Positions 5,769-59,516 of a stretch of DNA of 64,000 nt are shown here, piece after piece. The DNA is taken from contig OY282444.1 of NCBI GenBank assembly GCA_958296125.1, positions 1,289,176 to 1,353,175 on the forward strand, read 5' to 3'. The notes beneath the pieces were generated by a model. That model made no database searches. It was not told the origin of the DNA and saw nothing but the letters and a program-made list of their open reading frames with translations. The stretch is from an uncultured Poribacteria bacterium. Its GTDB lineage: Bacteria > Poribacteria > WGA-4E > PCPOR2b. The stretch's first letter is position 1, and every line of letters starts with the position of its first letter. The position numbers and the translations under genes were made by a program.

Positions 5769-8700
5769 TTACCGCATTGACATTTTCTCAGGATTGCTTG
5801 TGCGCCGCAGGACAACACCCCACTGACCGACTATCCATAGCGTATCGTCGTTTGGAGCGCGGACGATAGTATATAGGTTGTTGGAGATATCTGTATATTC
5901 TCGTTCCCATGTTGTGCCGCCATCCGTTGAATGGAGGATTGTGCCGGCTGCACCAACGACGTAGATTTTCTGCTCCGATAGCGCGAGGATGCCGTAGAGT
6001 GCTTCGGTGACACCGCTCGACAAGGCTTCCCACTTAAATCCGCCTCCAGTTGTGCGGAGGATGATGCCGTAATCGCCGGCTGCCCACCCCTTCCGTTTCG
6101 TGATGAACGACACCCCATACAGATTATAACCGGTGTCGGTTTCGTGATGCTTCCAATATCCGCCCCCGTTGATTGTTCGTTGGATAATGCCGCTGTGCCC
6201 AACCGCCCAACCGAGCGGCGCAAATTTCATCTCGACCCTTTCGAGGTCTTTCCCTGTGGAGGTACGTTGGGGGGTCCAGATGGGGCCCCCGTCTTGGTTA
6301 TGGATAATCTGTCCATCCCTACCAACAGCCCACCCTTCGGAGAAATCGCCAAACGCGACATCGCTTATGGCAAACGGCAACGGCGGGTCTTCCTCAAAGA
6401 GACCTGGGAGCGTCGGGGTTTGTCCCACTGACCATTTCACACCGTTGGTTGTGTACAGCACGGTGCCATCGCGCCGCATTGACCAGCCCCATCGCGTTGT
6501 TCCTTCAGATTCGGCGTTTAACCCCGATACATCGGCAAAGTGAATGCCGACAAGCGTCTGTTCAGTTCCACTTTTCACTGGGGTCCAAGTCTGCCCGCCG
6601 TCTTGGGTCTCCAGCAGTAAGCCATTATCTCCGGTAATCCAACCGTGCGTGTCGTCTAGGAAGAGGATATCCCGGAAGTCATCAAGTTGCTCGCCGAGTT
6701 GACGTTCCCACGTTTGTCCGCCATTTTCAGTGTAATAGATATGCCCTGCGTCGCCAACTGCCCATGCGTGTTGGTCGCCGACGAAGTGCACATTGGTGAT
6801 TGGCAGCCCGGATTGACGACGACCCCGATGTTGGCGGGCTATCGGTCTTTCTCGGTTTTCCCTCTCTGTATCTGTCTGTGTGGTAGCTGTGTCCTCAGCA
6901 TCACTCTCAATCTCTCCTTCAGGCGTGAAACGCCCAACGCGCGATCGCCGCTCGCTCAAATCTCTCTGAAAGGTGTCAGCAAAGCCTTCGTCCAGTGGAT
7001 TGGTGACCGGTGGCTGTGGCTCTTGCGCGTGATCCGCTGCTGCCTCCATGTCTACCTGTTTACTCTGAGCAATTAGTTCTGCCATCGTCTCAAGCCCGAC
7101 GTAGTTCGGCAGCCAACTCTCGCCTTGGTCGCTTGTTACGAGAATCGCGCCGTTACGGTCAATGCCCCAAGCCCGCTGATGGCTATGGAACTTGATTCGA
7201 CGAATCCCTTCCACCACGGTTTCCGGGAAGATTTGTCGCCACGTTACGCCGCCATCAGATGTGATGAGGGACTTGCCCTCCCTGCCCACAATCCAGCCGG
7301 ATTTTGCATCGGCGAAATGCACTGCGGCAGCAGGCTGGTGGGTCTTGCTCTGAATCTCCCAGTAGTCCCCGCTGTTGACGGTATGCAGAATCAGTCCCCC
7401 TTCGACCCGTTGGGGGGTAATTGCCCACCCTTCGGTGCTATTGACGAAATGGAGTGCTGTGATGGGTTGGTTTGTCGTCCCGGTTTTCTGACGTTTCCAC
7501 GTTACGCCGCCATCGGTCGTATGGAGCGTTTGTCCCTGATCCGCACCGAGCCACCCTTCTTGACTATTGATGAACTGCATGGCACTAATCCTGTGGAAGT
7601 TTCGCACTACCTTTTTGATGACCTGCCACGTTTTTCCACCATTTTCTGTCCGAAGCAGCACACCGCGTCCGACAATCCATCCGTGATCTTCGTTGATGAA
7701 AGTGATGTGGCGCAAATCCTCCTTCACACCACTGTGTTGGGGCACCCACGTTTTGCCGCCATCCGTCGTGTGTGCAATCACGCCGCCGGATCCGACTGCC
7801 CACCCGCGTAAAGTAGCTGGCTCATCCCCTGTACGATGAAAATAGGTATCGGCGAAATCCGTCTGCCAAGTTGCCTGACGGACGATTTCCCAATGATAGG
7901 TGACCTCCTCGACGATCGGTGGTTCTTCAATAGCTTCGGCAGCTTCCGTTGGCTCTGCCATAGGGGGGAGTTCGGCTGGCAATTCTTCCGCGTCAACAGA
8001 GTAACGCATCGCAATTCCCCCTTTGCCAACAGCGACCATCCCTTCCGGTGAAAGGGCAAATCCGTATAGGTCGTTCTCCGTGTCGCTCTCCTGCAGTTCC
8101 CATTTCGCCCCACCGTTGGTAGTAGTTAGGATAACCCCGTTGTCCCCCACGACGAGGCCATGCTTTGCATCGGCGAAGTAGACCTTATTCAAATTTGCCT
8201 CCACACCGCTCCGTTGGAATTTCCACGTTTTTCCCCCATCTTTGGTGTGCAAAATTTCTCCAAACTGCCCAGTTACCCAGCCGGTCTTGTTGTCGATAAA
8301 GTAGATCGCGTATAGTTCATTGTAGGTAGGTGTCTTTTGTTGTGTCCATGTCAGTCCGCCGTTGGCTGTGCCGATAATAATGCCGGGCCAACCGACCGTC
8401 CAGCCTTCCTTATCGTTGAGGAAGAACACGCCTTTGAGCATGTGAAATTCGCCCGGCGTTTGCTGCACCCATGATTCGCCGCCATCAGCCGTATGTAAGA
8501 CCGTCCCAAGATCGCCAACAACCCAACCTTTTTTCGGACTGACGAAGTAGGTGCCCCGGAGCGAGTACCACCACCCGCTTTTTTGCGTTTCCCAGCTCTG
8601 TCCGCCGTCAGCGGTATGGACGATCATGCCCCGATCACCGACTGCCCACCCCTCTAGGTCTGAGACAAAATAGAGGCTTCGGATGTTGTCCCAGATATCC

Positions 8701-9824
8701 GTCTGAACCTCGGTCCATGTTTGCCCGCCATCTTGGCTCATGGCGATGGTGCCCCCTTTGCCGACAGCAATTGCCCGATTCGCATCAGCAAACTGTACCT
8801 CCTCAAGGTCGTTGGCGGTCGTGCCGCTGACTATCGCCCATGTTTCTCCGCCATCCTCTGAGTGCATGATTGTGCCATACCAGCCGATCGCCCATGCCTC
8901 GTTTGGGGTGGTAAACTGAATTCCTGTCAGATTATTTTCGGTGCCGCTCTCCAGCAATCGCCAATTGTCCCCACCGTCCTCTGTGAACGTGATGAAACCG
9001 ACATCAGCGACCGCCACGCCGCGTTTGTTGTCCACAAAGTGGATACTGTTGACGGTGTCTCGAACATGTCCGTTGATTAGTGGGATACGACTATCCTGAC
9101 GCGTCCATTCGGTACCTCCGTTTATGGTGTGAAAAATTGAGCCATCAGTCCCGACAAGCCAGCCCTCATTTTTGCTGATGAAGAAGACCCGCTTGTTGTC
9201 ATTGATCATCCGGTCGCGTTCACCCTCGTAGCGGTTAGTTTGTTGCCGCCACGTTTTGCCACCGTCCTCTGTGAAGAGAATCCGATCATTTGCACCGACA
9301 GTCCAGCCACGGTACTTGCTGACAAACCAGATGCCGCTAAGTGGAAAGTCGCTGATGTATTCATACCGTTCCCATGTTTTCCCGCCGTTCTGTGTGTATA
9401 GGACATCGGCATCCTCTCCGACGATCCACCCCTCATCGGAATTTGCGAAGCAGACATCCCTGAGCATTGCTAAGGTGCCGCTTTCCTGAAGATGCCAGTG
9501 CCGTCCGCCATCATCGGTGGTAGCGATTAAGCCCTTATCGCCCACTGCCCAACCGTAACGGGGATTGGTGAAATAGACCGCCTTGAAATCACCTTCCGTT
9601 GCAATTTCTTGGCGTTTCCACGTCTTTCCACCATCGCTCGTGTGGACGATTAATCCCTTTTCGCCGACGATCCAGCCGCGTTCGGCATCTGCGAAGTGCA
9701 AATCCGTGAAATTAGTTTCCCAATCCGCTTTGCGGGTCACGTCTTGTTTACAACCGACGAGTAAAATTATGAATGTAAAAGCAAGCGTCGTCGCTCGGAA
9801 TATATGTTGGTATGCCTGTTTCAT
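5769..9824 (-). CDS. Large YCF48/BNR-repeat beta-propeller lipoprotein (1351 aa)
   Basis: Lipobox LLVGC; many GWxVGxxG.I.HTxDGGxTW (Asp-box) repeats; acidic/Pro linkers. Confidence 0.9.
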   Translation of the reverse strand: MKQAYQHIFRATTLAFTFIILLVGCKQDVTRKADWETNFTDLHFADAERGWIVGEKGLIVHTSDGGKTWKRQEIATEGDFKAVYFTNPRYGWAVGDKGLIATTDDGGRHWHLQESGTLAMLRDVCFANSDEGWIVGEDADVLYTQNGGKTWERYEYISDFPLSGIWFVSKYRGWTVGANDRILFTEDGGKTWRQQTNRYEGERDRMINDNKRVFFISKNEGWLVGTDGSIFHTINGGTEWTRQDSRIPLINGHVRDTVNSIHFVDNKRGVAVADVGFITFTEDGGDNWRLLESGTENNLTGIQFTTPNEAWAIGWYGTIMHSEDGGETWAIVSGTTANDLEEVQFADANRAIAVGKGGTIAMSQDGGQTWTEVQTDIWDNIRSLYFVSDLEGWAVGDRGMIVHTADGGQSWETQKSGWWYSLRGTYFVSPKKGWVVGDLGTVLHTADGGESWVQQTPGEFHMLKGVFFLNDKEGWTVGWPGIIIGTANGGLTWTQQKTPTYNELYAIYFIDNKTGWVTGQFGEILHTKDGGKTWKFQRSGVEANLNKVYFADAKHGLVVGDNGVILTTTNGGAKWELQESDTENDLYGFALSPEGMVAVGKGGIAMRYSVDAEELPAELPPMAEPTEAAEAIEEPPIVEEVTYHWEIVRQATWQTDFADTYFHRTGDEPATLRGWAVGSGGVIAHTTDGGKTWVPQHSGVKEDLRHITFINEDHGWIVGRGVLLRTENGGKTWQVIKKVVRNFHRISAMQFINSQEGWLGADQGQTLHTTDGGVTWKRQKTGTTNQPITALHFVNSTEGWAITPQRVEGGLILHTVNSGDYWEIQSKTHQPAAAVHFADAKSGWIVGREGKSLITSDGGVTWRQIFPETVVEGIRRIKFHSHQRAWGIDRNGAILVTSDQGESWLPNYVGLETMAELIAQSKQVDMEAAADHAQEPQPPVTNPLDEGFADTFQRDLSERRSRVGRFTPEGEIESDAEDTATTQTDTERENRERPIARQHRGRRQSGLPITNVHFVGDQHAWAVGDAGHIYYTENGGQTWERQLGEQLDDFRDILFLDDTHGWITGDNGLLLETQDGGQTWTPVKSGTEQTLVGIHFADVSGLNAESEGTTRWGWSMRRDGTVLYTTNGVKWSVGQTPTLPGLFEEDPPLPFAISDVAFGDFSEGWAVGRDGQIIHNQDGGPIWTPQRTSTGKDLERVEMKFAPLGWAVGHSGIIQRTINGGGYWKHHETDTGYNLYGVSFITKRKGWAAGDYGIILRTTGGGFKWEALSSGVTEALYGILALSEQKIYVVGAAGTILHSTDGGTTWEREYTDISNNLYTIVRAPNDDTLWIVGQWGVVLRRTSNPEKMSMR

Positions 9825-10673: not shown

Positions 10674-11417
10674 ATGAACACTCGCAGGTTTATTACCACG
10701 GCCATTCTGGCAATAGTGGTGTTAATCGGGATAAGTTCATTCGTTGTTTACGATATGAGGGCCCCTGTCAAAGAAGTAAGGGTCTATGAAGTCCCCGAAT
10801 CAAGGCAGGTGCAGCGTAAAGCGAATGTAATAGAGATAGCTGACAACCCAACCCTACCTCAAGATATTTCTACCCTTACGGCAGAAGAAAAGGCTGCTAA
10901 AATTGAACAGCTACGTGCTGAAATTGAACAGCTAGATGCTGAAACTGAACAACTACGTGCTGAAACTGAACAGCTACGTCAGGAAACAGCTGAAGCAAAT
11001 CGAAGGAGTGCTGCTGCCTTACAACGCATTGCGGAAGCAAAGCGTGTAGCTGCGAGCATAAAAGATGGAACCCATCCCCTGATTGTCGAAACTCGCGAAC
11101 TAGTGTATTGGATTGAAAATGATTTTACCCCCCGATTCGCTGCAGCGGCTGACGAGGCAGGGCATTTGGTAGTTCCCCACATGACGCGAGAGACTTTTGT
11201 TGAGATGTATCCTGACCCAGCGGACCAAGCATATTACATCCAAAAACTCCAAGAAATCGTAGGTCTCCATGAAGAACTTGCCACACGCATTGCCAATGCA
11301 TCGCCAGATGTCCGCGAGGCGAGTATTGAGGGATTTCGGCGGGTGTGGACTGTCGCCTTTGGAAAAGATGTAACGGACGATTTCCTCGCAGAGATTTCTC
11401 AACGGATAACCAACTAA
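10674..11417 (+). CDS. Hypothetical membrane-anchored protein with heptad coiled coil
   Basis: Strong RBS aaggagg; N-terminal hydrophobic helix; KIEQLRA-EIEQLDA-ETEQLRA-ETEQLRQ heptads. Confidence 0.75.
   Translation: MNTRRFITTAILAIVVLIGISSFVVYDMRAPVKEVRVYEVPESRQVQRKANVIEIADNPTLPQDISTLTAEEKAAKIEQLRAEIEQLDAETEQLRAETEQLRQETAEANRRSAAALQRIAEAKRVAASIKDGTHPLIVETRELVYWIENDFTPRFAAAADEAGHLVVPHMTRETFVEMYPDPADQAYYIQKLQEIVGLHEELATRIANASPDVREASIEGFRRVWTVAFGKDVTDDFLAEISQRITN
10897..10981 (+). repeat. 21-bp coding tandem repeat, about 4 units
   Basis: Units of the form aaattgaacagctacgtgctg. Confidence 0.85.
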
Positions 11418-11783
11418 GGAGAACCCCATGAGAAAATTGATTGTAATCCCCTTGAGATTTCAAAAACGCCTGAACGACCCACACCAGCGTCTACCTCAAT
11501 TCCCGCCTTCCCACTGAATGCCCTCGCTACCCATTCGATTTATCTTAAAGTTTCGGAGAAGTAGGTAGAAATAAAGTAAGAAATCGACCGCCCGTCCTAC
11601 CCCGATCGCGTGCCCAACCCCCTTCTATCAAATTTCAATCCATTATCGCGGACGCAATCATCGAAAACAGCGTCTCCGTCCGTAGCATAAGTGATTCATT
11701 GTGCTCATTGATATGCTGCTGCTCCCGTTAGATTTAACAATCCGATGGGAGCGTGGGGGATTTGTTGTTATCAGCCTTTTTGC

Positions 11784-11812
11784 TTGCATTTCAATAACGG
11801 GTATGCTAAGAT
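11784..11812 (+). promoter_or_regulatory. Sigma70-type promoter for the MetE-like gene
   Basis: TTGCAT-17 nt-TAAGAT with extended -10 TG, about 120 nt upstream of ATG 11933. Confidence 0.55.
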
Positions 11813-11932
11813 GAACACACTATTCCCGGTGGGAAATTGATACGGGTACAGGGACACACATTGCACTGTATGTGTATGACAAACGGATAAACATCGGGTT
11901 TGCAATGGAAACCGTATTTGCGAGGGGTGCCC

Positions 11933-13042
11933 ATGATCACGGCACATACCGATGTCATTGGCAGCTTGCTCCGTCCGCCTGAACTTCTCAAAGCAAGAAG
12001 CGAGGTCACCGCGGGCAGAATAAAGCAAGCGGCGTTCAAAGCCATCGAAGATCGAGCGGTTGACAAAGTTGTCGCGCTTCAGGAAGCGGTGGGCTTGGAA
12101 GTCGTTACCGATGGCGAAATGCGTCGGTTATCCTTCCAGAGCCAGATGACAGAAGCGATTGCCGGTTTCGGCGAATATGACCTCAATGCTTTCCTTTGGG
12201 GAGATTGGCGTGGCGACGGGGGTGCGGGGAACTTGAGCCTAGAACGTCCCAAAAGCTTGGGCGTTGTCGGCAAACTCACCCGCAAGCGTCACCTCTCAGC
12301 GGAGGAGTTCACCTACCTACGAGCGCGGACGACTCGCATACCGAAGATCACGTTGCCCAGTCCCAGCCTGTGGACGAACTTCTGGTCGCCAGAATACTCC
12401 CTGCCTGCCTATCCCACGCTTGACAGTTTCCTTGCGGATGCCGTTGACATCCTACGGGACGAGGTTGCCGAGTTGGTTCGACTCGGTGGAACCTACATTC
12501 AACTTGATGCCCCCCACTACCCGCTGCTGCTCGATCCCAAGACTCGAACCTTCTATGAAGAGCAAGGTTGGTGCCTTGATCAGTGGTTGGACCGAGGCAT
12601 TGAGATGGATAACGCTGTGATTGGCGATTTCCCGGAGGTGACCTTTGGCTTTCACCTCTGACGCGGCAATCAGGGCAGCCGGTGGTTGGCCGAAGGGGGC
12701 TATGACCTGATTGCCAAACCGATTTTTCAAGGCATCCGTGCACAGCGTCTGCTGCTCGAATATGACGATGAACGCTCCGGTCTATTTGAACCGTTGAAGG
12801 AGATTCCCGATGACAAGATTGCCGTTTTAGGCTTGGTTACGACGAAAACACAACGGCGAGAGACACCGGAAGCACTCACCACGCGTATCAAGGAAGCCAG
12901 CCAATTTGTGCCGCTAGAACGACTTGCGTTGAGTCCACAGTGCGGCTTTTCAACTTCGGTCATCGGCAATCGCATCACAGCAGAGGACCAGAGGCATAAG
13001 CTGTCGGTGATTGTTGAGACCGCTAGAAGGGTATGGGGCTGA
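11933..13042 (+). CDS. Selenocysteine-containing cobalamin-independent methionine synthase II-like (short MetE catalytic-domain family) protein, 369 aa, Sec243
   Basis: Track ORFs 11900-12661 and 12686-13042 are in the same frame, joined by TGA 12659-12661 read as FHL-U-RGN (canonical HLCRGN); other Zn ligands intact (H241, E276 in LLEYD, C337 in SPQCGF); RBS gagggg before ATG 11933. Confidence 0.88.
12674..12691 (+). promoter_or_regulatory. Putative bacterial SECIS element of the MetE-like gene
   Basis: Hairpin GGC-AGCC/GGTT-(G)-GCC with apical loop GGT beginning 19 nt after the UGA; G at loop position 1. Confidence 0.65.
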
Positions 13043-13055
13043 ACTGGGAGAAATT

Positions 13056-13235
13056 TTGAAGGAGGATGGATACGGCGCAAATCCCCAAAAACCATCAAAT
13101 GCGATCGGTGATTCCTATATTTGTACTGTAGACAATGTGAGCCCCGGTGCTGTTATCGCTCGATCTACAGCGGCAACCCGCGCAGATGCTGAATCTGATG
13201 CGTTAGCACAAGCGAAAGCTGCTATGGGGACTTGA
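13056..13235 (+). CDS. Possible 59-aa small protein
   Basis: TTG start after GGGAG; Ala-rich helical C-terminus; no family recognised. Confidence 0.3.
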   Translation: MKEDGYGANPQKPSNAIGDSYICTVDNVSPGAVIARSTAATRADAESDALAQAKAAMGT

Positions 13236-13270
13236 ACTCGCGATGATATAATTGTGTTATACGAGATTAG

Positions 13271-13303
13271 AGAAACCGAGTTTTTGTCAAAAACTCAGTT
13301 TCT
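13271..13303. repeat. REP-like palindrome / possible terminator between the MetE-like gene and selD
   Basis: AGAAACCGAGTTTTT-gtc-AAAAACTCAGTTTCT, 15-bp inverted repeat with one mismatch. Confidence 0.65.
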
Positions 13304-13343
13304 GGCACCTTTGCAGAAGGTAAGAAAAGTTGGGAGTGATAGG

Positions 13344-14405
13344 ATGAACTTAAATAAGCTGTCACGAAAACATACCCTCACAAGTTTGGCAAAAACGTGT
13401 GGGTGAGCGGCGAAAGTCAGTCCAGTTGGACTGGGAGAACTCTTGGCAAAATTGCCGAAGAAAAGCGACCCGAATCTGCTTGTTGGATTTGAAACTAGCG
13501 ACGATGCCGGCATCTACCGCCTCAACGACGAGATGGCATTGGTTACGACCGCCGACTTTATCACGCCACCCGTGGATGACCCGTATCTGTTTGGTCAGAT
13601 TGCTGCAGCCAATTCAATCAGCGATATTTATGCGATGGGCGGCAGACCTGTGACCTGTCTGAATTTGGTGGGGTTTCCGGCGGATAAATTGGCCCCAGAA
13701 ATCCTGCATGGCATTGTCGAAGGTGCGTTAAGTAAAATCACTGAATCGGGTGCAGTCTTGGCGGGAGGGCATACGACCGACGATGAGGAGCCCAAGTTTG
13801 GGTTATCGGTCACTGGGATTGTGCATCCGGAAAAATATTGGCGAAATGTCGGTGCAGAACCGGGGGATGTGCTAATCTTGACCAAACCGATCGGCAGCGG
13901 CGTGATTTTTAACGCCAATCTCAAAAATTGGGTATCAGACCAAGCGTTAAACGAATGCCTACAGACTATCACAACGCTCAACAAGCAGGCGGCGGCGGTG
14001 ATGGCTGACTTCGACATCCATGCGGTAACGGACATCACCGGATTCGGATTGGGGGGGCATGCCTTGGAAATGGCGGAAGGGTCGACTGTGACTTTGGAAA
14101 TTCATACCGACGACGTGCCGATTCTGCGCGAGGCACTGGAAATGTACCAAAAAGGGATGCGGACGGGTGTCAACGCTGCCAATCGAGCCTTGATTGAAGC
14201 TTTTGTACACTTTGAAAAATCACTCCCCGAATGGCATGAGGAAATTTTTGTTGATCCGCAGACCAGCGGTGGATTGCTAGTGTCTGTGCCGGATGCTCAA
14301 AGCAAATCGCTGTTGACGGCTCTACACAATGGCGGTGTGACAAAAGCACAGGTTATCGGGAATGTGAAATCCTTTGTTGAACCGAACCATCTTGTCTTTG
14401 TATGA
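13344..14405 (+). CDS. selD: Selenide, water dikinase (selenophosphate synthetase), Sec-containing, 353 aa
   Basis: ATG 13344 reads MNLNKLSRKHTLTSLAKTCG-U-AAKVSP, in frame with track ORF 13443; TGA 13404-13406 at the catalytic C/U-x-x-K site; DDAGIY, TADFITP, AAANSISDIYAMGG, DITGFGL, DPQTSGGLL motifs. Confidence 0.96.
13418..13433 (+). promoter_or_regulatory. Bacterial SECIS element of selD
   Basis: Perfect stem CAGTCC/GGACTG, loop AGTT beginning 17 nt after the UGA, G at loop position 2. Confidence 0.8.
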
Positions 14406-14408
14406 ATT

Positions 14409-15359
14409 ATGAAAATATGCTTAATTACCCCTGCCCCAACATACTCTCGGAAGGGTAACCGTGTGACTGCCCTTCGGTGGGCTCGCATCTTACGAGACCT
14501 GGGTCACCGCGTCGTTATCGCGGAGGAATATCGGGGGGAGCGATGCGATTTGCTGGTCGCGCTCCACGCGCGTCGTAGTCACGCTTCTATTGCGCGTTTC
14601 CATCACGAACACCCAGAGCTGCCTCTCATCCTCGCCTTAACTGGAACAGATCTCTACGGCGATATCCATACAGATGCATCAGCCCAAGAATCTTTGGAGA
14701 TAGCGGATCGTTTCATTCTGTTACAGCCCGCAGGCATTAAAGAACTCTCAGAACACCTGCGTGACAAAGCGTGGGTAATCTACCAATCAATAACAGCACC
14801 ACCGGGGAGGTTTGTCCCAAAAAAGCGCGTTTTCGAGCTGTGTGTGCTGGGGCATCTGCGGCCTGTAAAGGACCCATTTCGGACTGCGATGGCAGCTCGA
14901 TGGCTGCCTCCATCATCCCAGATTCAGGTGGTGCATGTTGGGGGTGCACTCACCGACGACATGAAAGCAGCGGCAGAGGCTGAAGCAGCCACCAATCCAC
15001 GTTACCGTTGGTTGGGTGAGCTCCCACGCTGGCGGGCACTCCGTATCCTTGCACGAAGTCGGCTGCTCGTGCTGACCTCTCAAATGGAGGGAGGAGCGAA
15101 TGCAGTTTCCGAAGCGCTCGCGTGTTCCGTTCCTGTCATTTCGTCGCGGATATCTGGCTCGATCGGTCTCTTGGGAGAGGATTATCCGGGCTACTTTCCG
15201 GTGGGAGATACAAAAGCGTTGACGGATCTGCTCATGCGTGTTGAAATGGATACCGCATTTTATGACATACTCAAAGCGTGGTGTGAAAGCCTAAAGTCGA
15301 TTGTCGATCCTGACCGTGAGCGTCGGAGTTGGAAAGGTCTGCTACAGGATTTGCGGTAA
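14409..15359 (+). CDS. senB: Selenosugar synthase (TIGR04348-type glycosyltransferase)
   Basis: ITPAP..SRKGNRVTALRWA, ALHARRS, LTGTDLY, HLRPVKDP, MEGGAN motifs; starts 3 nt after the selD stop. Confidence 0.88.
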   Translation: MKICLITPAPTYSRKGNRVTALRWARILRDLGHRVVIAEEYRGERCDLLVALHARRSHASIARFHHEHPELPLILALTGTDLYGDIHTDASAQESLEIADRFILLQPAGIKELSEHLRDKAWVIYQSITAPPGRFVPKKRVFELCVLGHLRPVKDPFRTAMAARWLPPSSQIQVVHVGGALTDDMKAAAEAEAATNPRYRWLGELPRWRALRILARSRLLVLTSQMEGGANAVSEALACSVPVISSRISGSIGLLGEDYPGYFPVGDTKALTDLLMRVEMDTAFYDILKAWCESLKSIVDPDRERRSWKGLLQDLR

Positions 15360-15407
15360 ATCTTCAGAGGTGACAGGGTTTAATCTATTGGATTGGTGGA
15401 GTCAACT

Positions 15408-16379
15408 ATGAAAAGGGTTGGAGTTGTGGGGGCTGGTGCGTGGGGGACTGCGCTCGCGGTTACGGCAGCGCGGGCGGGTAGCGAAGTCACCTTATGGGCG
15501 CGGGAGCCGGAGGTTGTGGCATCTATCAACGGACGACAGGAAAACAAGATGTTCCTTCCCGGTATCGAGCTGCCCGACACTATCCATGCGGTCAACGATT
15601 TGGGGGCGATGCTGGCACAGGACGCACTGTTGATGGTGGCACCCGCCCAATATGTGCGGGACACCTGTGAGCAGCTGGCTTCAGTCAGTTTGGATGTCTC
15701 TCCTCCCGTAATTATCTGCAGCAAGGGGATAGAGCAACAGAGTTTGAAGCTGATGAGCGAAGTTGTGGCGGAGCATTGGCCCAATCCGCTAGCGACACTC
15801 AGCGGACCCACCTTTGCGACGGACGTGGCAAAGGGACTGCCTGCGTCGGTAACGCTTGCATGTGGCGACGAAGCACTTGGGCGGAAACTAGCGCGGTTGG
15901 TCGTGCACCCAAAGTTTAACGTCCATCATTCCGACGATTTGATAGGGCCCCAAATCTGTGGACCCATGAAAAATGTCATTGCCATCGCTTGCGGTATTGT
16001 GGAGGGCAAAGGGCTCGGAGAAAGCGCGAAAGCCGCATTAATCACCGAAGGGTTGGCGGAGATAAGCCAACTGTGTGTTGCTAAAGGTGGCAAACCCGAA
16101 ACAGCGATGGGGTTATGTGGCCTTGGTGACCTGATTTTGACTTGCAACAGTCACACTTCACGCAATATGTCTTTGGGCTACGCATTGGGACAAGGAGAAA
16201 CGCTAGAGGCGATTTTGCGCGAACGTAACAGTGTCGCCGAAGGTGTTGCGTCGTCCAACGCTGTGGCGGGATTAGCAGCCCAACTGGGTATTCAGCTGCG
16301 GATCTGTGGAATCGTTAATCAGATTGTGCGAGGCGATGCAGATGTAGATCAGGTGGGCCTGGCACTTGTTCAGAGCTAA
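15408..16379 (+). CDS. gpsA: NAD(P)H-dependent glycerol-3-phosphate dehydrogenase
   Basis: GAGAWGTALA, CSKGIE, LSGPTFA, KNVIAIACG, GLGDLILTC, SRN, AEGV. Confidence 0.95.
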   Translation: MKRVGVVGAGAWGTALAVTAARAGSEVTLWAREPEVVASINGRQENKMFLPGIELPDTIHAVNDLGAMLAQDALLMVAPAQYVRDTCEQLASVSLDVSPPVIICSKGIEQQSLKLMSEVVAEHWPNPLATLSGPTFATDVAKGLPASVTLACGDEALGRKLARLVVHPKFNVHHSDDLIGPQICGPMKNVIAIACGIVEGKGLGESAKAALITEGLAEISQLCVAKGGKPETAMGLCGLGDLILTCNSHTSRNMSLGYALGQGETLEAILRERNSVAEGVASSNAVAGLAAQLGIQLRICGIVNQIVRGDADVDQVGLALVQS

Positions 16380-16446
16380 AGATGGAAGATCCGGCGGAAT
16401 TGTCATAGACCTATCGATCTACCGGGGTTATGTGGGTTGAAACGAA

Positions 16447-16749
16447 ATGATTAAATACACCCCATTGACGCTTGATGAAATCCCTGAAGATGAGCAGGAA
16501 GTGCTTCTCACAAAGGTTGCGATGGAGATTGTGAAGCGGCGGCTGACCGTGCCCGCGATTGTATTCCTTGAGACCTGTAAACCGCTCAACTTTATCGGGA
16601 GTCAAATGCTTATTGCGCTTAACCCTTTTGTCACTGCAATTTTTAACACCGCTGAATATCAGAAATTTGCTTTGATAATCGAAAAGGATGCAAATGTTGA
16701 ATTGCTGACTCAACTTATTGAGAAATTAGATGGAGAGGAGAAAAAGTAG
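16447..16749 (+). CDS. Conserved hypothetical protein upstream of the GlmL-like gene
   Basis: 100-aa ORF with plausible composition, stop 2 nt before the next start. Confidence 0.75.
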   Translation: MIKYTPLTLDEIPEDEQEVLLTKVAMEIVKRRLTVPAIVFLETCKPLNFIGSQMLIALNPFVTAIFNTAEYQKFALIIEKDANVELLTQLIEKLDGEEKK

Positions 16750-18559: not shown

Positions 18560-18717
18560 AAAGAAAGTACAAAATGCGAAGATTACTCAAATTTTTGTCA
18601 AAAACGCAGGGGCTGTTACACCATTTCCTAACATGAGTTTCCAGACCCGATTAGTATGTCTCATGGATGCGGATTACCGGGGTAACACACAGACACTCAG
18701 AACAGGAGGAATCGACG

Positions 18718-19545
18718 ATGCCCATTATGGATGCGCTGCCGGATATGAAGCGAGAGCTCAAATTCTTTCCGGGCGGGAATGACAATCCCCAAAAACTGAC
18801 AGCAGAACAGATTCGTCAATTTAACGAAAAGGGCTACATCTTTCCGCTAGATATATTTACGGAAGCAGAGGTGACGGCGAACCGAGCGTATTTCGATCGG
18901 ATTGTGGGAATGGCAAAGGAAGCTGGCTTGAACAGTTATTCAATCAATGGTTGGCATCCCACCTGCCGGGGGATTTACGATTTGGCAATGAATGACCGCA
19001 TCCTCGATTATGTGCAAGACCTACTCGGCGAGGACCTGATCTGCACCATGACCCACTATTTCTGTAAGGAGCCGGGCGATACGAAACGGGTCACTTGGCA
19101 TCAAGATGCTTCCTATTGGCCCCTGACCCCCAGTAAAGTGGTCACAGTTTGGTTAGCGATTGATGATGCAGATGAAGAAAATAGCGCGATGAAGGTTATC
19201 CCCGGATCTCATTTACAGGGACAGATTCCGTTTGAGCATAGCACAGCGGAGGAGAACAACGTCCTGGGCCAGTCGGTGCGTCAACCGGAAGAGTATGGAG
19301 AAACACCTGTTGCTTTTGAAATGAGAGCCGGTCAGATTTCGCTACACACCGATCTATTGCTACATGGATCGGAGCCGAATACCTCAAATCGGCGGCGCTG
19401 CGGTCTCACTCTCCGCTATTTCCCGCCGGACGTGCGTGGGAGGGATCCGAAGCACGGTTCGGGTATCATCTGTCGTGGAAGCGATGGCGAGGGTTATTGG
19501 CAGCACATTCCGAGACCTGAGGGCGATCAGATCCGGAGGACGTAG
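18718..19545 (+). CDS. Phytanoyl-CoA dioxygenase (PhyH) family Fe(II)/2OG oxygenase
   Basis: WHQDASYW (HxD), distal HGS and NRRR; RBS ggagg before ATG 18718. Confidence 0.9.
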   Translation: MPIMDALPDMKRELKFFPGGNDNPQKLTAEQIRQFNEKGYIFPLDIFTEAEVTANRAYFDRIVGMAKEAGLNSYSINGWHPTCRGIYDLAMNDRILDYVQDLLGEDLICTMTHYFCKEPGDTKRVTWHQDASYWPLTPSKVVTVWLAIDDADEENSAMKVIPGSHLQGQIPFEHSTAEENNVLGQSVRQPEEYGETPVAFEMRAGQISLHTDLLLHGSEPNTSNRRRCGLTLRYFPPDVRGRDPKHGSGIICRGSDGEGYWQHIPRPEGDQIRRT

Positions 19546-19718
19546 GGTTCGATCGATACCGGTCCCATTCAAAAGGGGATAAGTCTCTGCTAGCTTAAAT
19601 TAACCGCAGAGACACAGAGTCCGCAGAGTTTTTTAAGGGATAGGGTTTTTGATATTCAAAAATGTGGAGAGAGGGCTTGGGCTCCAAGTCCTTGACCCAA
19701 ATTAATAAGGAGAAAAAT

Positions 19719-20540
19719 ATGCCAGTTTTAAGTGCAGCAGATATAGACTTTTGGGAAGAGAACGGTTACGTTGTCCTTCACGATGCGGTGCCACCGGAAA
19801 ACTGTAAAGCAGCCGAGCAGGCTGTCTGGGACTTCCTTGAAATGGATACAGATGACCCAGCGACTTGGTATCCAGACCCGCCGCGCCGCGGCATTATGGT
19901 CGAGATTTATCAGCATCAAGCGTTGTGGGACAATCGGCAATATCCCCGAATCCATCAAGCTTTTTCCGAGATTTGGGACACGGAGCAGCTGTGGGTCAGC
20001 TTCGATCGCGCCAGCTTGAACCCGCCAGAACGACCGGATTATAAATTTCCGGGGCCCCACCTGCACTGGGATATGTCTTTGGATATGCCGTTTGGCCTCA
20101 GGGTGCAGGGGGTGTTATACCTGACCGATACACCTGCCAATCAGGGGGCATTCACCTGTATACCGGGCTTCCACCGGAAATTGGAGGATTGGCTCAACGC
20201 TCTTCCGGAAGGGACAGATCCACGGCAGGTTATCAAGGAAAGAGATGCCGAGGCCGTGCCGGTTGCGGGGAAAGCTGGGGATCTGGTGATCTGGCACAGT
20301 GCTCTGCCACACGGGAGCAGTCCGAATAGCAGCGATCGCCCTCGAATTGTGCAATATATCACCATGTCGCCGGCACCGAAGGATAATGAGGAAGCGCGTC
20401 AGAACCGGATCAACGGATGGCGGGAACGGTTGACAGGGTTAGGCAAGGAAGAGAAGGAGAAGGAGCACCTCCAAGGTAAGACAGCGGAGTTGACCCCGTT
20501 AGGACGCAAACTTTTGGGGCTGGCCGCTTGGGAAGAGTGA
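19719..20540 (+). CDS. Phytanoyl-CoA dioxygenase (PhyH) family protein
   Basis: LHWD, VQGVLYLTD, LPHGSSPN..R; RBS aaggag. Confidence 0.9.
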   Translation: MPVLSAADIDFWEENGYVVLHDAVPPENCKAAEQAVWDFLEMDTDDPATWYPDPPRRGIMVEIYQHQALWDNRQYPRIHQAFSEIWDTEQLWVSFDRASLNPPERPDYKFPGPHLHWDMSLDMPFGLRVQGVLYLTDTPANQGAFTCIPGFHRKLEDWLNALPEGTDPRQVIKERDAEAVPVAGKAGDLVIWHSALPHGSSPNSSDRPRIVQYITMSPAPKDNEEARQNRINGWRERLTGLGKEEKEKEHLQGKTAELTPLGRKLLGLAAWEE

Positions 20541-21971: not shown

Positions 21972-24900
21972 ATGAATGAGATGAATTCTATACAAACCGA
22001 ATTAGACGCAGCACGGGCAGAGCTGCTTGATCAGAGTTTACGCAACCCCCTCATTAACTACAGACTGCTCAAGGCGCGAGGGCTTGAGGTGGTTGATGAA
22101 TCTCCTCCAGATGTTTACCGTATTCTTGTTCAAGAGGGTAAGGCTATGTCTTTCCTACGAAAGCCTGAACCTGAAGAAGATGATAACTTACAACTGTTTG
22201 AAGATGATGAGGTGGAGAAAGATTCGGATCGACATACCGATAACAAACTTCAAACAGACTATTCACAAACGGAGCTTCAAAAGCGTTTACTGAACACTCT
22301 TAATACAGCGCGGACAGCTATCGAAGAGCAAGGGGTGACTATACTCTATCTCGCACTCGGCATGCTTCAATGGTATGAATCCGAATCGAGTGATATACTG
22401 CATCGTGCCCCACTTATCCTGATTCCGGTGGGGATTGATCGTGCCAGTGTCCATGCGCGTTTTAATATCCGCTACACAGAAGAGGATATCGGGACAAATC
22501 TTTCCCTTCAGGAGAAATTAAAATCTGAATTTGGCATCCAACTCCCAGACCTTCCTGATGCGGATGATCTTGAGCAGTCCAACATTCAGAGCTACTATCA
22601 AACAGTAGATGCGGCAATTGATGGACGTAAGCGGTGGTCGGTTGATGAGACTGCAATTACGCTTGGTTTCTTTTCGTTTGCTAAGTTCTTGATGTATCAT
22701 GACTTAGATAGCGTAAACTGGCCCGACGATTCCCTATCTCAACATCCCGTATTGCACTCGCTGCTGACAACTGGATTTCAAGAACCGGAATCAGCCATTC
22801 CTGATGACGCTCAAATTGACAATGACGAACACTTCAATCCTGCGGAGACCCATCATGTCGTTGATGCAGATAGTTCACAGGCGTTGGCTATCCACGATGT
22901 GAGTCAAGGGCGAAACCTTGTTATTCAAGGACCACCGGGCACCGGAAAATCCCAAACCATTACCAATCTGATTGCGGAAGCCATTGCAAAGGGAAAGCGG
23001 GTGCTGTTTGTGGCAGAAAAGATGGCGGCTTTGGAAGTGGTCAAGCGTAATTTAGACAAGGTAGGGCTCGGAGATGCGTGTTTGGAACTGCATAGCCATA
23101 AGATGAACAAAAAGGCGGTAGTTGATGAACTAAAGCGAATCCTAGAACTCGGCGAGCCACGGACAACAGCCTTTGAAGAGGAAGTAAGATTACTGTGCAA
23201 TAACCGTGATCGCTTAAACAGTTACTGTCAGGCAGTCAACACGCCCATTGGCGAAAGTGGGATAACACCTTATCAGGCGTATGGAGAACTTTTAGCGGTG
23301 AAACGTCGCCTTTCAGGAGTGGAACTTCCGACTTTGGATTTACACCAATTTCAACATTCGGTGTCTGAATTTGGAGAAGGGTTAGAGCGCACAGAAGAAT
23401 TACAACGCCACCTCAAGCAGATGGGGATACCTGTAAACCACCCGTTTTGGGGCAGTCTTTGCAGACTTTTCCTTCCAACAGACAGGGATCTACTGGAACG
23501 GGTGGTGGGAGAGGCGACAGCGAAAGTTATAGCACTCAAGGATTCATCCGAACAACTCGCACAACACCTCAAACTTACGGTGCCGGACACTTGCGTAGCG
23601 GTCGAAAACCTGCTAAATGTGGCACATCGTGCGTTAGATGCGCCACACTTAGCAGGTGTCAATGTGCAGTCAACCGAATGGCGGACGCACCGTAGCGATT
23701 TGGAGGTAGGATTAAGCGCGGGGGAACGGTTGAGCGAACTTCATGCTAAATATGATAGTATCCTTATCCCTGAAGCGTGGGAACAAAATGTTCTGGAGAT
23801 TCGGCAGATGTTGGCAGCCTATGGAGGCAAATGGTGGCGATCTTTTTCGGGCAAATATCGACGCGCCCACGATAAACTAACAGGCTTATGTACGCAACCA
23901 CTACCCAAAACCCAAGAAGCGCGACTCCGTATCGTTGACGCGATTCTCGAAGCACGACGTGAACTACCCCATCTCGAAGATATACAGGAGCTCGGACAGC
24001 GGTTATTTGGCACACATTGGCAAGAAGAGTCCTTGAATTGGTCTCAACTTCAAGAAATTGTCAGGTATCTTTCAGCACTGCATGAATCGATAGTGAACCG
24101 TGAATTGCCAGGGGCATTGGTTGCATATCTCGCAGCAAACCCCGATTTGGAAACACTTCGGACATTGGTTTCAACGGTTGAGGGGCACAAAAACAGCCAT
24201 TCAGATCTCCTTCAAACTGTCCTCGAAAAGATTCAACTTGACGAAACAGTGCGTTTTGGATGCAATAATGGCCTGAAAGCGTGTCCACTCACAGAACAGG
24301 TACACACTCTTGAGTGTTGGGAACAGGAAGCGGAGAAACTCCAGGATATTGTCACCTATAACCACTTGGTGGAGGCGTTAAGGAACAGCGGCTTCGCTGA
24401 AATTGTGAAAATCGCGAATGTCTGGCCTGAGGCGAGCCAGTTTCTATCGGACGTACTCAGACGAGCTTGGTACAGTGCACGAGTTGAGAAAGCGATGCTG
24501 GAGCACCCCATCCTTGCGGGCTTTACTGGCGATTCCCATCAACATACTGTTGAACGGTTTACAGAATTAGACAGCTACTCACTTGAATCCAATAAGGCTA
24601 AAGTTGCATACGAACATTGGAAGCGTTTGCCTCAACACAAAGCGTCTAGTGGACAGTTAGGGCTGCTCAGGCGTGAATTTGAAAAAAAGCGACGGCATCT
24701 ACCAATTCGTCAGCTTATGGATAAGGCGGGAAATGCTATACAAGCGATTAAGCCGATATTCATGATGAGTCCACTCTCAGTAGCAGCGTTCCTAAAGCCA
24801 AACAGTGTTGATTTCGATTGGGTGGTGTTTGACGAAGCAAGTCAAGTCAAACCTGTTGACGCTTTCGGGGCAATAATTCGGGGTAGACAAACCGTTGTTG

Positions 24901-26699
24901 TTGGGGATAACCGTCAACTTCCACCGACCCGTTTCTTTGATAAGAACATAGCGGATGATCAAAATGGAGATGAGGGAGAAAACCTAGTAGGCGATATGGA
25001 GAGCATTTTGGGGTTGTTTAGTGCCCAGTACGCACCAGAGCGTATGTTACGCTGGCACTATCGCAGTCGACACGAATCGTTAATTACTGTATCCAACATT
25101 GAATTCTACGACAATAAGCTTCAACTCTTCCCAAGTCCTGACGCTGCGAAGGAGGAGGTAGGCTTAATTTATCATTACCTAAAAGATACTGCTTATGAAC
25201 GCGGGGGAAGTAAAGGAAACAGGAAGGAAGCTCAAATCGTGGCAGAGAAAGTGATGGAGCACGCCCGTTCATCTCCCGATCTGACGCTCGGTGTAGCAAC
25301 GTTTAGTACACCGCAGATGATAGCAGTTCAGGATCAACTTGAAATCCTGCGGCGGGCAGAGGATGATCCGTCGTGCGAAGAGACGTTTTTCAACGCGCAT
25401 CCTGAAGAACCGTTTTTCGTCAAAAATCTAGAGAACGTCCAAGGCGATGAACGCGATGTTATTTTTATTAGCATCGGCTACGGACGGGATGCCAATGGAC
25501 GCCTCACAATGAACTTTGGCCCTCTCAATCAAGATGGTGGGGAGCGACGGTTGAACGTATTGATTACGCGGGCGCGGCGGCGTTGTGAAGTGTTCACCAA
25601 CCTGACTGCTGATGATATTGATCTGAGTCTTACCCTTGCACCCGGTGTCGTAGCACTTAAACGTTACCTGAAATATGCAGCGACAAGCGAACTTGACATC
25701 CCAGAACCAAGCAACAGGGAGGCAGATTCACCGTTCGAGGAAGAGGTTGCAAACGCCTTGCGTGAACTTGGTCACCAAGTTGACCATCAAATTGGTTCCG
25801 CCGGATATTTCATTGATCTTGGGGTCAAAGATCCAGAGCGTCCGGGACGCTATCTGTTGGGCATTGAGTGTGATGGTGCGACCTACCATAGTGCACAATC
25901 AGCGCGTGACCGTGACCGCCTTCGACAGCAAGTGCTTGAAGATCTGGGTTGGCGTATCCATCGCATCTGGAGTACCGATTGGTTTAAAAGGCAGGACCAC
26001 GAAATCAGAAAGGCAGCAGAAGCGATCGAGGCAGCTAAAGCATATGTTCCTTCGCTACCTGAGTTGTCTCCCGGAAACAACTTCTCCGATTCCAATGGGA
26101 GTGAGGAAGAACCAGAGCCCAATCCTGATATAACTGTTCCTCCAGCACCAGAACCGACCGAAAAGTACAAACTCGCCAAACTGTTTATTTCTACCGGTGG
26201 AGTACATTTACATGAAGTTACGTTGTCCAAGATGGAAAATTGGATTCAGGATGTTCTTAAAATTGAAAGCCCAGTGCATCTTGACGAAGTAACGAAGCGT
26301 ATCACAAATGCTGTGAAGGTAAAGCGAAGAGGCAATCGCATCCGAGAAAAGGTCAAGAGTGCCGCTAGGCAAGCAACGCGTTCTGGTAGCGTTCAGATTA
26401 GAGGAGAATTTCTCTATTGGACAAAGCAAGGGAAGGTCACAGTGCGGGACCGAAGTGAACTCCCGAACCCTTCACGAAAGCTTGAACTTATCGCGCCTGA
26501 AGAGATAAAAGCCGCTATCAAGCAGGCCATATCGGACGCATTTGGGATCGAGCGAGACGATTTAGCCCGTGAGGTTTGCAAACTTTTCGGCTTCAAGTCG
26601 TCAAGCGGGGATATGCGACAAGGAGTTGAGAAGGTCGTAGAGGAACTGATCGAGGAGGAGCAGTTGATTCGGAAGGGGGATTCATTGATTATTCCTTAA
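21972..26699 (+). CDS. DUF4011 - SF1 helicase - Vsr/MTES_1575-like nuclease - DUF3320 protein (Hhe-type anti-phage protein)
   Basis: LLDQSLRNPLINY N-terminus; GPPGTGKSQT Walker A; FDEASQ; VVVGDNRQLPP; HYRS; NVQGDERD; RRLNVLITRAR; GIECDGATYH...RDRLRQ..LEDLGWRIHRIWSTDW. Confidence 0.9.
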   Translation: MNEMNSIQTELDAARAELLDQSLRNPLINYRLLKARGLEVVDESPPDVYRILVQEGKAMSFLRKPEPEEDDNLQLFEDDEVEKDSDRHTDNKLQTDYSQTELQKRLLNTLNTARTAIEEQGVTILYLALGMLQWYESESSDILHRAPLILIPVGIDRASVHARFNIRYTEEDIGTNLSLQEKLKSEFGIQLPDLPDADDLEQSNIQSYYQTVDAAIDGRKRWSVDETAITLGFFSFAKFLMYHDLDSVNWPDDSLSQHPVLHSLLTTGFQEPESAIPDDAQIDNDEHFNPAETHHVVDADSSQALAIHDVSQGRNLVIQGPPGTGKSQTITNLIAEAIAKGKRVLFVAEKMAALEVVKRNLDKVGLGDACLELHSHKMNKKAVVDELKRILELGEPRTTAFEEEVRLLCNNRDRLNSYCQAVNTPIGESGITPYQAYGELLAVKRRLSGVELPTLDLHQFQHSVSEFGEGLERTEELQRHLKQMGIPVNHPFWGSLCRLFLPTDRDLLERVVGEATAKVIALKDSSEQLAQHLKLTVPDTCVAVENLLNVAHRALDAPHLAGVNVQSTEWRTHRSDLEVGLSAGERLSELHAKYDSILIPEAWEQNVLEIRQMLAAYGGKWWRSFSGKYRRAHDKLTGLCTQPLPKTQEARLRIVDAILEARRELPHLEDIQELGQRLFGTHWQEESLNWSQLQEIVRYLSALHESIVNRELPGALVAYLAANPDLETLRTLVSTVEGHKNSHSDLLQTVLEKIQLDETVRFGCNNGLKACPLTEQVHTLECWEQEAEKLQDIVTYNHLVEALRNSGFAEIVKIANVWPEASQFLSDVLRRAWYSARVEKAMLEHPILAGFTGDSHQHTVERFTELDSYSLESNKAKVAYEHWKRLPQHKASSGQLGLLRREFEKKRRHLPIRQLMDKAGNAIQAIKPIFMMSPLSVAAFLKPNSVDFDWVVFDEASQVKPVDAFGAIIRGRQTVVVGDNRQLPPTRFFDKNIADDQNGDEGENLVGDMESILGLFSAQYAPERMLRWHYRSRHESLITVSNIEFYDNKLQLFPSPDAAKEEVGLIYHYLKDTAYERGGSKGNRKEAQIVAEKVMEHARSSPDLTLGVATFSTPQMIAVQDQLEILRRAEDDPSCEETFFNAHPEEPFFVKNLENVQGDERDVIFISIGYGRDANGRLTMNFGPLNQDGGERRLNVLITRARRRCEVFTNLTADDIDLSLTLAPGVVALKRYLKYAATSELDIPEPSNREADSPFEEEVANALRELGHQVDHQIGSAGYFIDLGVKDPERPGRYLLGIECDGATYHSAQSARDRDRLRQQVLEDLGWRIHRIWSTDWFKRQDHEIRKAAEAIEAAKAYVPSLPELSPGNNFSDSNGSEEEPEPNPDITVPPAPEPTEKYKLAKLFISTGGVHLHEVTLSKMENWIQDVLKIESPVHLDEVTKRITNAVKVKRRGNRIREKVKSAARQATRSGSVQIRGEFLYWTKQGKVTVRDRSELPNPSRKLELIAPEEIKAAIKQAISDAFGIERDDLAREVCKLFGFKSSSGDMRQGVEKVVEELIEEEQLIRKGDSLIIP

Positions 26700-39483: not shown

Positions 39484-40227
39484 CTACTTCAGTCGGAGAA
39501 TCTCACGTTGTGCCTCTGATAGGTTATCTGTGACGTGGTTGCTGAAAATTAAGCCCTGACCGCCCCAATCGGGCATGTAGCCGATACTGTAGCAGTAATA
39601 AATGGTTCGGCGCGGGCGTTTTGAGGTGTTCACCACCGAACCGTGTGTCAAGGCTTCGGTGAAAATAATGGCATCACCTGCCTTTGCAGGAATTGGTGTC
39701 AACACCGGATTTTCGTCGGGGTGGCTGCCCCAGGGTCTCAAGAAGTTGCTCTTATGTGCGCCCGGTATGACAGCAAAGCATCCGTCCTCAACATCGCAAT
39801 CCAGCATCGGAAATACAGCTTTGGTCAGCGTCGAGATCATTTGACCGTTGCGACAATGATACTGACATTTGGGGATGATTGGGGTGCCCTGCATGTGCAG
39901 CCCTGTATAACCGCCGCCCCACCGGTAGATTGTGTAGGTATGGTTGAGTCGGTAAGGTCCACCGGTCACACCTTCAACCACATCTAACACCTCAGGAAGG
40001 TCAATCAGTGGATTGAAAACGGGATCGGCTTCGAGAATATTGGAGATATAGAGTTCCTTTTCTGTCTTAGGGGTGCCGAGACAGAGCGGCGGTGGATAGT
40101 TTTCTGGCGGCATGTCTTCAAAGGGGTCTAATGTCTTATTACACGCTTCCACCACAGATTGAGGCACCACATTTTCCAAGACAATGTAGCCTTGCAGGTC
40201 AAATAGATATTTTTGTTCTTCTGTCAC
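39484..40227 (-). CDS. Phytanoyl-CoA dioxygenase (PhyH)-like protein
   Basis: QGYIVLENV, IPGAHKSN, FTEALTHGS...RR; the usual HxD reads HMQ. Confidence 0.8.
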   Translation of the reverse strand: MTEEQKYLFDLQGYIVLENVVPQSVVEACNKTLDPFEDMPPENYPPPLCLGTPKTEKELYISNILEADPVFNPLIDLPEVLDVVEGVTGGPYRLNHTYTIYRWGGGYTGLHMQGTPIIPKCQYHCRNGQMISTLTKAVFPMLDCDVEDGCFAVIPGAHKSNFLRPWGSHPDENPVLTPIPAKAGDAIIFTEALTHGSVVNTSKRPRRTIYYCYSIGYMPDWGGQGLIFSNHVTDNLSEAQREILRLK

Positions 40228-54902: not shown

Positions 54903-55008
54903 CGCGCCAGAAAATTAACTGACGCTTTAGATCGCGGCTTTGCCGAATGCGAAACGTAACGAGGCACAATCGACTTTAACGGTAATTAGGAAATGGAGAG
55001 GTAGCAAC

Positions 55009-56370: not shown

Positions 56371-56402
56371 ACCTGAGTTGGAATGAATTAAGCGAGCAGC
56401 CC

Positions 56403-57845: not shown

Positions 57846-57859
57846 GGAGTTGCTCCTCT

Positions 57860-59326: not shown

Positions 59327-59516
59327 GTGCCCCTCCCGTGCCAAGCTTGTCTCAACGGTCAAGTAGTTAAGTGGATTTGCATTTCTTTCAACGATTTCCC
59401 CGCTTGATCCCTTCCGCAACTAGCAATATCTAATTAGGTTATCATAAGTCGAAAGTTAGGTTATGATAGTCGGACTATGTCAAGCTTTTAGTCCGTTAAT
59501 CAACCCTCAATACCCG

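Follow-up and report, generated by a model that had tools for sequence, protein, structure and literature searches.

In an uncultured Poribacteria bacterium, a selD-senB gene pair preceded by a methionine synthase (MetE)-like selenoprotein gene appears to supply the selenium-activating steps of a conventional selenoneine pathway whose genes are divided between two chromosomal sites in its clade, with the MetE-like gene as a recurrent accessory; we put the probability of this reading at about 0.7. The genes lie in a stretch of 64,000 nucleotides (contig OY282444.1, positions 1,289,176 to 1,353,175), the whole of which is hereinafter referred to as the window. A sequence-only reading of the window had noted senB without senA and proposed that the selenosugar made by SenB is diverted to a new product. 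This was not borne out, as SenA was found in all 16 close relatives and on a contig from the same sample. The occurrence of SenB without SenA is best explained by a split pathway, because the relatives and the same-sample contig carry senA together with egtD, and this sponge symbiont very probably has its own senA-egtD half at another site in the genome. Since the claim of a SenA-less selenometabolite pathway fails, the locus should not be counted as a new pathway.

In the proposed pathway, SelD, itself containing selenocysteine (Sec), would produce selenophosphate, and SenB would use it with a uridine diphosphate (UDP)-sugar to form a 1-selenosugar. SenA (selenoneine synthase), encoded with EgtD (hercynine synthase) at a distant site and followed by a betaine-type ATP-binding cassette (ABC) transporter, would then couple the selenosugar to hercynine. 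The MetE-like protein, a core zinc enzyme with Sec in place of one zinc-ligand Cys, would not replace SenA but would act as a recurrent accessory of sen clusters. Its methyl acceptor would be homocysteine or a similar amino-acid thiol or selenol, and the methyl group would come from a donor that is not methyl-folate. Its placement with sen genes may serve the use of S-adenosylmethionine (SAM) by EgtD, may ensure that it is synthesized only under selenium supply, or may do both.

Poribacteria, which are abundant sponge symbionts, thus appear to carry a complete selenoneine pathway, in three arrangements within one phylum. In addition, a widespread MetE-family enzyme whose Sec form is encoded beside sen genes is a testable candidate for an accessory step or a regulatory coupling in selenoneine biosynthesis. 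A literature search of incomplete coverage returned no paper linking Poribacteria to selenoneine, and no report of a MetE-like gene in sen clusters, of a Sec-containing MetE-family protein, or of a Sec zinc ligand in a non-redox methyltransferase.

Location of senA and egtD

The closest complete chromosome (OZ242036.1) encoded SenA (521 bits, cutoff 420), EgtD (356 bits, cutoff 291), and a betaine-type ABC transporter, and its senA-egtD site was located approximately 1.35 Mb from selD-senB. The same SenA reached only 147 bits on the OvoA model (cutoff 400). The genome collection was scanned with a SenA motif (HEDMHNEAFTYTR), which was specific to poribacterial SenA among the loci compared, and then searched by tblastn. 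SenA was present in 16 of 16 close-clade genomes and was 84-93% identical to that of OZ242036.1. It was full length wherever the retrieved stretch spanned the gene, and EgtD followed wherever the stretch reached that far. Neither SenB nor SelD was found in the retrieved senA-egtD stretches of these 16 genomes. In a somewhat more distant relative (OZ244587.1), the gene order was MetE-like-senA-selD-senB, with senA located exactly in the spacer. Among the more distant Poribacteria, and in Acidobacteria and other phyla, SenA (518-522 bits, cutoff 420) was encoded directly before SenB.

The window was present at 100% identity in three sequencing runs of one sample (X1-X3). These runs contained a single 5.7-kb senA-egtD contig, which was 83-87% identical to that of the relative. 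Its depth in X1, X2, and X3 was 4.8, 7.0, and 5.2, respectively, compared with 3.1, 6.2, and 5.2 for the contig of the window. The sequence-only reading had named a senA elsewhere as an observation that would count against its proposal; such a gene was found in every close relative examined and, for the sample of the window, is supported by this contig of similar depth.

Loci retrieved from other genomes are identified by L numbers where needed. SenA of Poribacteria OY764061.1 (L150:6441-7734) aligned in two pieces (residues 1-41 and 40-431), suggesting a frameshift or a long-read assembly error. The ABC transporter encoded after senA/egtD in Poribacteria and Methylomirabilota (L035:10538-12877, L042:9352-11591) consisted of a ProV-like ATPase and a fused OsmF-like binding domain/permease. 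This betaine/choline-type transporter has the architecture of the ergothioneine importer EgtUV, and it may move hercynine, ergothioneine, or selenoneine.

Identification of selD and senB in the window

The three co-directional genes of the locus, with gpsA after senB, were confirmed at the coordinates given in the sequence-only reading. The selD (senC) gene, encoding selenide, water dikinase (13344-14405, plus strand), scored 376.7 bits against TIGR00476 (cutoff 125). The senB gene, encoding the selenosugar synthase, a Se-glycosyltransferase (14409-15359, plus strand), scored 398.1 bits against the TIGR04348 equivalog (cutoff 300). The two genes are 3 nt apart, as had been described, and gpsA (15393-16379; NF000942, 370.6 bits) follows senB. 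SelD is a selenoprotein, with its Sec codon at 13404-13406 on the plus strand (TGA; motif TCG-U-AAK) followed by a hairpin at 13417-13434 (GUCAGUCC-AGUU-GGACUGGG; plus strand). The TGA was kept in all poribacterial relatives, and distant SelDs contained Cys at this position.

The Variovorax SenB structures 8JJN and 8FBX aligned to SenB of the window with an E value of 1e-55. Residues N20, T23, Q131, V157, the catalytic K158, E231, and E239 were retained, and H235 was replaced by Asn, the EGGAHV motif reading EGGANA. The roles of the catalytic and sugar-binding residues of SenB (K158, N20/T23, and E231 in EGGAHV) have been reported (PMC10891094).

No EgtB/SenA/OvoA-like gene was detected in the window: a Pfam scan of 41 of the 64 listed open reading frames (ORFs) of at least 130 aa, picked by eye as likely genes, revealed no FGE-sulfatase or DinB_2 domain, and tblastn with poribacterial SenA and EgtD against the whole 64 kb gave a best E value of only 0.37. 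The earlier statement that the 64 kb lack an EgtB/SenA-like gene was thus upheld. Further, no selA or selB turned up among the scanned ORFs, a scan that covered the window only, and no tRNA gene was found in the window.

Relatives of SenB placed the window in Candidatus Poribacteria, the best match being 91% identical at the protein level. The order MetE-like, selD, senB was common to 17 genomes of the SenB search, including L012 (about 18 related genomes overall). Most of the 17 also retained gpsA, a 100-aa ORF, a GlmL-like gene, and PhyH genes. Because the whole neighbourhood is syntenic, conservation of the trio within the clade is read as a reflection of general synteny. The exact order was restricted to this one closely related Poribacteria clade.

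MetE-like selenoprotein

The MetE-like gene (11933-13042, plus strand) encodes 369 residues in one frame with a sole in-frame TGA at 12659-12661 (motif GFHL-U-RGNQ), which occupies the position of the Cys in the His-x-Cys part of the zinc site. The product matched Pfam PF01717 (Meth_synt_2; E = 1.6e-14). Its best NCBIfam scores were 236.8 bits against PRK06520 (cutoff 313) and 218.7 bits against another model (cutoff 576), and no folate-binding N-terminal domain was detected in this single-domain core protein. Since the scores lie below the equivalog cutoffs and there is a single domain, the protein is best regarded as a family member of unspecified specificity and not as a proven methionine synthase.

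The nearest solved structure was 1YPX (E = 1.6e-49), and MesD (3RPD) was matched with an E value of only 4.9e-7. Among 98 family members, the zinc-site residues H241, U/C243, E276, and C337 were invariant, as were the homocysteine-binding residues S11, E62, and D192 (S433, E484, and D599 in Escherichia coli). The roles of these homocysteine-binding Ser, Glu, and Asp residues are known from MetE and MesD (PMC7857596). Their conservation suggests a homocysteine-type substrate; it argues for an amino-acid thiol or selenol and against a selenosugar.

Each of the 120 best-matching homologues in the database carried Cys at the Sec position. These were full-length proteins of 72-79% identity, a level shared by thousands of full-length Cys-form proteins. 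The TGA was present throughout the loci of the close clade and also in other phyla. A hairpin resembling a Sec insertion sequence (SECIS), CAGCC-GGU-GGUUG (12676-12688, plus strand), starts 17 nt after the U of the UGA and lies inside a longer stem (12665-12715), whose predicted fold had a free energy of -26.4 kcal/mol (z -2.2). The core hairpin CAGCC-GGU-GGYUG was the consensus of 71 Sec-form sequences. In the codons that form the stem and its GGU loop, Ser was encoded by AGC in 67 of 67 Sec forms and Arg by CGG in 62 of 67, and CGG occurred in none of five Cys forms. The earlier assignment of a Sec-containing MetE-like gene was therefore substantiated by conservation, Cys homologues, and the hairpin: the TGA is read as a genuine Sec codon at a zinc-ligand Cys position, with a predicted SECIS function for the hairpin. 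The protein represents a candidate new selenoprotein family with Sec at its zinc site.

MetE-like genes beside sen genes in other phyla

A scan with a Sec-form motif yielded 75 stretches, of which five lacked a MetE-like gene and were chance matches, leaving about 70 real ones. Each Sec-form locus was viewed in a stretch of at most 8 kb, to which the gene counts for these loci refer. The Sec forms came from approximately 70 species of Anaerolineales, Acidobacteriota, Methylomirabilota, Latescibacterota, Gemmatimonadales, Tectomicrobia, Nitrospinota, Binatia, Planctomycetota, and others. Outside the clade of the window, sen genes were found in 19 of 52 Sec-form loci. In 14 of the 19, senA was located 31-152 bp downstream of the MetE-like gene on the same strand, and in 11 egtD was located 26-105 bp upstream. 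The typical cassette comprised egtD, the Sec-form MetE-like gene, senA, an ABC ATPase gene, and a gene for a fused substrate-binding/permease protein, the last two encoding a betaine-type ABC transporter; in one such cassette, senA (515 bits) and egtD (381 bits) both scored above the curated cutoffs. Other arrangements included senA-senB-MetE-like-egtD in a Planctomycetota genome and a MetE-like gene followed by senA-senB in a Latescibacterota genome. In addition, a Cys-form MetE-like gene was present near selD, senB, and senA in Thiohalorhabdus (L112).

In a neighbor-joining tree, the MetE-like proteins of the cassette type formed one group, and the poribacterial ones were placed elsewhere, among Cys forms. 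Because the two are in separate parts of the tree, the association between MetE-like and sen genes must have arisen, or been kept, more than once. The adjacency emphasized in the sequence-only reading therefore recurs in part: the exact order was confined to one Poribacteria clade, where it is syntenic, but a Sec-form MetE-like gene beside sen genes, mostly egtD and senA, was observed in several phyla. For this reason, the MetE-like gene is likely to be linked to the selenoneine system. The idea of the MetE-like protein as a pathway partner is thus supported in part, for a link to sen genes and not for a role in a new pathway without SenA.

A different Cys MetE-like gene, whose product was only 31% identical to that of the window, preceded senA by 113 bp on the same strand in an Acidobacterium (MEKR01000144.1; L138:11-2513), which hints at independent recruitment of a MetE-type activity. 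In two unrelated contigs (L233:8363-13154, L236:10791-12230), genes for MttB-superfamily (PF06253) methyltransferases were found within a few kb of a Cys-form MetE-like gene, in one case together with a gene for a Pterin_bind protein; such neighbours hint at a connection with the methyl metabolism of quaternary amines.

Possible roles of the MetE-like protein

Because active-site and homocysteine-binding residues are shared across the whole family, the most economical reading would be one common activity, including in members encoded far from selenium genes. The likeliest, though unproven, role of the MetE-like protein would then be methyl transfer of the methionine-synthase type, linked either to the pathway or to the supply of selenium; we infer both the substrate and this pathway role. 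EgtD consumes three SAM per hercynine.

Several observations weigh against the split-pathway reading or parts of it. The evidence for senA comes from relatives and from the sample of the window, and the senA-egtD contig found there demonstrates that the genes occur in the sample but does not place them in the same cell. Because selenium is handled in trace amounts, selenoneine synthesis would require little SAM, which weakens the methyl-supply idea. This MetE subfamily has no member of proven activity, 1YPX being a structural-genomics entry. In terms of gene context, 33 of the 52 Sec-form loci showed no sen gene within the stretch viewed, which was limited to 8 kb, sen genes were found in none of four Cys-form loci looked up, two of which had MttB-family methyltransferase genes nearby, and a MetE-like gene was present in only 3 of 79 SenA-anchored loci. 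Moreover, co-transcription of the MetE-like gene and selD in the clade is unlikely because the spacer between them varies and can contain an unrelated gene.

The same 33 loci would fit a selenium-dependent isozyme of a housekeeping methionine synthase that has no metabolic link to selenoneine and was co-located through shared selenium-responsive regulation or joint gene transfer. Both the MetE-like protein and SelD are selenoproteins, Sec forms are possible only in Sec-decoding organisms that contain SelD, and the Cys-form family is widespread in unrelated contexts. However, the gene occupies the exact interval between egtD and senA, at distances of 26-105 bp, and EgtD and SenA are not selenoproteins. 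The Cys form of L112 and the distant Cys MetE-like gene of L138 also adjoin sen genes, and no comparable clustering with selA/selB was noticed, although no systematic test was made. We consider such placement without a metabolic link unlikely. The proposal of the sequence-only reading, in which an organism without SenA feeds the selenosugar from SelD and SenB to the MetE-like alkyltransferase to give, e.g., Se-methyl-selenosugar, is far less probable still. It would account for the failure to find SenA and EgtD in the 64 kb and for three adjacent genes on one strand in an order kept in about 18 related genomes, but it conflicts with SenA elsewhere in every close relative, with EgtD beside it where the DNA reaches, and with the matching same-sample contig. 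In other phyla, the MetE-like gene lies beside egtD/senA, often without senB in the stretch viewed; the unchanged homocysteine-binding residues and the variable spacer to selD also speak against it.

In the MetE family, the zinc site activates thiolates and selenolates as partners in methyl transfer, and close placement of the gene between egtD and senA is observed repeatedly. Both points would suit an enzyme dedicated to methylating or demethylating selenium compounds in the selenoneine system, one that makes Se-methylselenoneine or frees selenium from its methylated compounds for SelD, as would the ties of UroD/MetE-superfamily relatives to methyl-selenium metabolism (PMC10418091). On the other hand, the residues that hold homocysteine by its free amino and carboxyl groups do not vary, also in Cys forms encoded far from sen genes, and selenoneine has no free alpha-amino group. 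The 72-79% identity to Cys forms in unrelated contexts likewise points to one shared activity, and as an explanation of the locus we regard this role as quite improbable. It is unlikely, too, that selenoneine metabolism has in the Sec MetE-like protein a fourth dedicated enzyme, namely a zinc/selenolate methyltransferase with a selenium compound as substrate (e.g., for the formation of Se-methylselenoneine or the recovery of selenium from methylated compounds); if true, the protein would add a new step to selenoneine metabolism and be the first selenoenzyme with a Sec zinc ligand at a methyl-transfer site.

Comparison with known systems

The locus shares with the senABC cluster the near-contiguous SelD/SenC and SenB pair. 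SenB scores above the TIGR04348 cutoff and has retained K158, the catalytic residue, as well as most of EGGAHV, and SenA and EgtD are encoded in the genomes of the relatives. In contrast to the senABC cluster, senA is not adjacent here and the genes are split into selD-senB and senA-egtD-ABC transporter; SelD is a selenoprotein, and a MetE-like selenoprotein gene is attached. Homologues of egtB and selD were reported within 5 kb of only 827 of 2,353 TIGR04348 genes (Kayrouz et al., 2022; bioRxiv 10.1101/2022.04.13.486033), and split sen arrangements are therefore not new in themselves.

The ovoselenol cluster (ovsA, ovsM, senB, and senC), whose genes can be chromosomally separated (PMC11030361), contains the same senB/senC selenosugar cassette. 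Neither an OvsA-type enzyme nor OvsM was found in the window, as judged from the lack of FGE-sulfatase and DinB_2 domains in the scanned ORFs. Unlike in the ovs cluster, the distant partner in the relatives scores as SenA (521 bits) and adjoins EgtD, which indicates hercynine, and hence selenoneine.

With the core methionine synthases (MesA-D, PMC7857596; the YxjG/YxjH-like family of 1YPX), the MetE-like protein shares the single Meth_synt_2 domain, the His-x-Cys...Glu...Cys zinc site, and the homocysteine-binding Ser, Glu, and Asp. Its closest relatives are those of the uncharacterized 1YPX family, not MesD, and it has Sec for one zinc-ligand Cys. The Pfam scans of the window revealed no MesX/DUF1852 partner. 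Formate dehydrogenase and [NiFeSe] hydrogenase have Sec in place of a metal-ligand Cys, common Cys-form homologues, and a hairpin after the UGA. The MetE-like protein resembles them in all three features, whereas its metal would be zinc, in a non-redox methyltransferase.

Region between the MetE-like gene and selD

The gap of about 300 bp and the palindrome that the sequence-only reading had placed between the MetE-like gene and selD are real: the genes are 301 nt apart, and an inverted repeat or hairpin (13270-13304, plus strand; 14 predicted pairs, -14.6 kcal/mol, z -2.5), which occurs once in the window, lies between a TATAAT box and the selD ribosome-binding site. In 13 relatives, the arms of the repeat were nearly invariant and the loop was variable. 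Since only one pair shows compensatory change, an RNA hairpin and a DNA operator are indistinguishable; the repeat may be an operator, a hairpin of the 5' untranslated region, or a weak terminator. An Rfam scan of 11400-16500 gave no match. The TATAAT box (13247-13252, plus strand), read from the sequence, lies approximately 95 nt upstream of selD in a block conserved in most relatives. It is possibly the promoter of selD itself and serves only as a lead; selD-senB probably has its own promoter. A scan for consensus promoters and terminators found no promoter-like site and two terminator-like sites only, both intragenic. A senA remnant in the 301-bp gap was considered and rejected, as the gap showed no similarity to SenA.

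Within the clade, the spacer ranged from 301 to 2055 bp and could contain unrelated genes, and the caution of the sequence-only reading that the MetE-like gene and selD might merely be co-located was thus justified. In three relatives, the spacer contained a gene for a secreted hypothetical protein of approximately 310 aa (L004:7316-8275, L030:6950-7879, L015:7681-8605), which was frameshifted in L015 and absent from the window. One relative (L008:8887-10000) had a 1.1-kb insert between selD and senB, with a 122-aa STAS-like ORF and a tandem duplication of approximately 96 bp (99% identical). The contigs matching the locus in the three sequencing runs were 17-18 kb in length and DNA-like.

Other genes in the window

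A gene on the minus strand (5769-9824) encodes a 1351-aa protein with 13 Ycf48/BNR-like beta-propeller repeats (PF14870, E = 9e-125) and keeps its position upstream of the locus in relatives. Three proteins resembled defence or DNA-processing factors: a 1575-aa DUF4011/AAA_11/AAA_12 helicase with an MTES_1575 nuclease domain (21972-26699, plus strand), a 927-aa HerA/FtsK-like ATPase (33827-36610, plus strand), and a fragment of a type I restriction R subunit (62254-63969, minus strand). A 383-aa DnaA-family protein (47307-48458, minus strand) contained Bac_DnaA and Bac_DnaA_C without an apparent N-terminal domain. GC skew showed no sign change near this gene, which may be a paralogue and not an origin-linked gene. 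Further, three PhyH-family dioxygenases and two sulfatases, typical of sponge-associated Poribacteria, were encoded at 18667-20540, 39484-40227, and 54940-59419.

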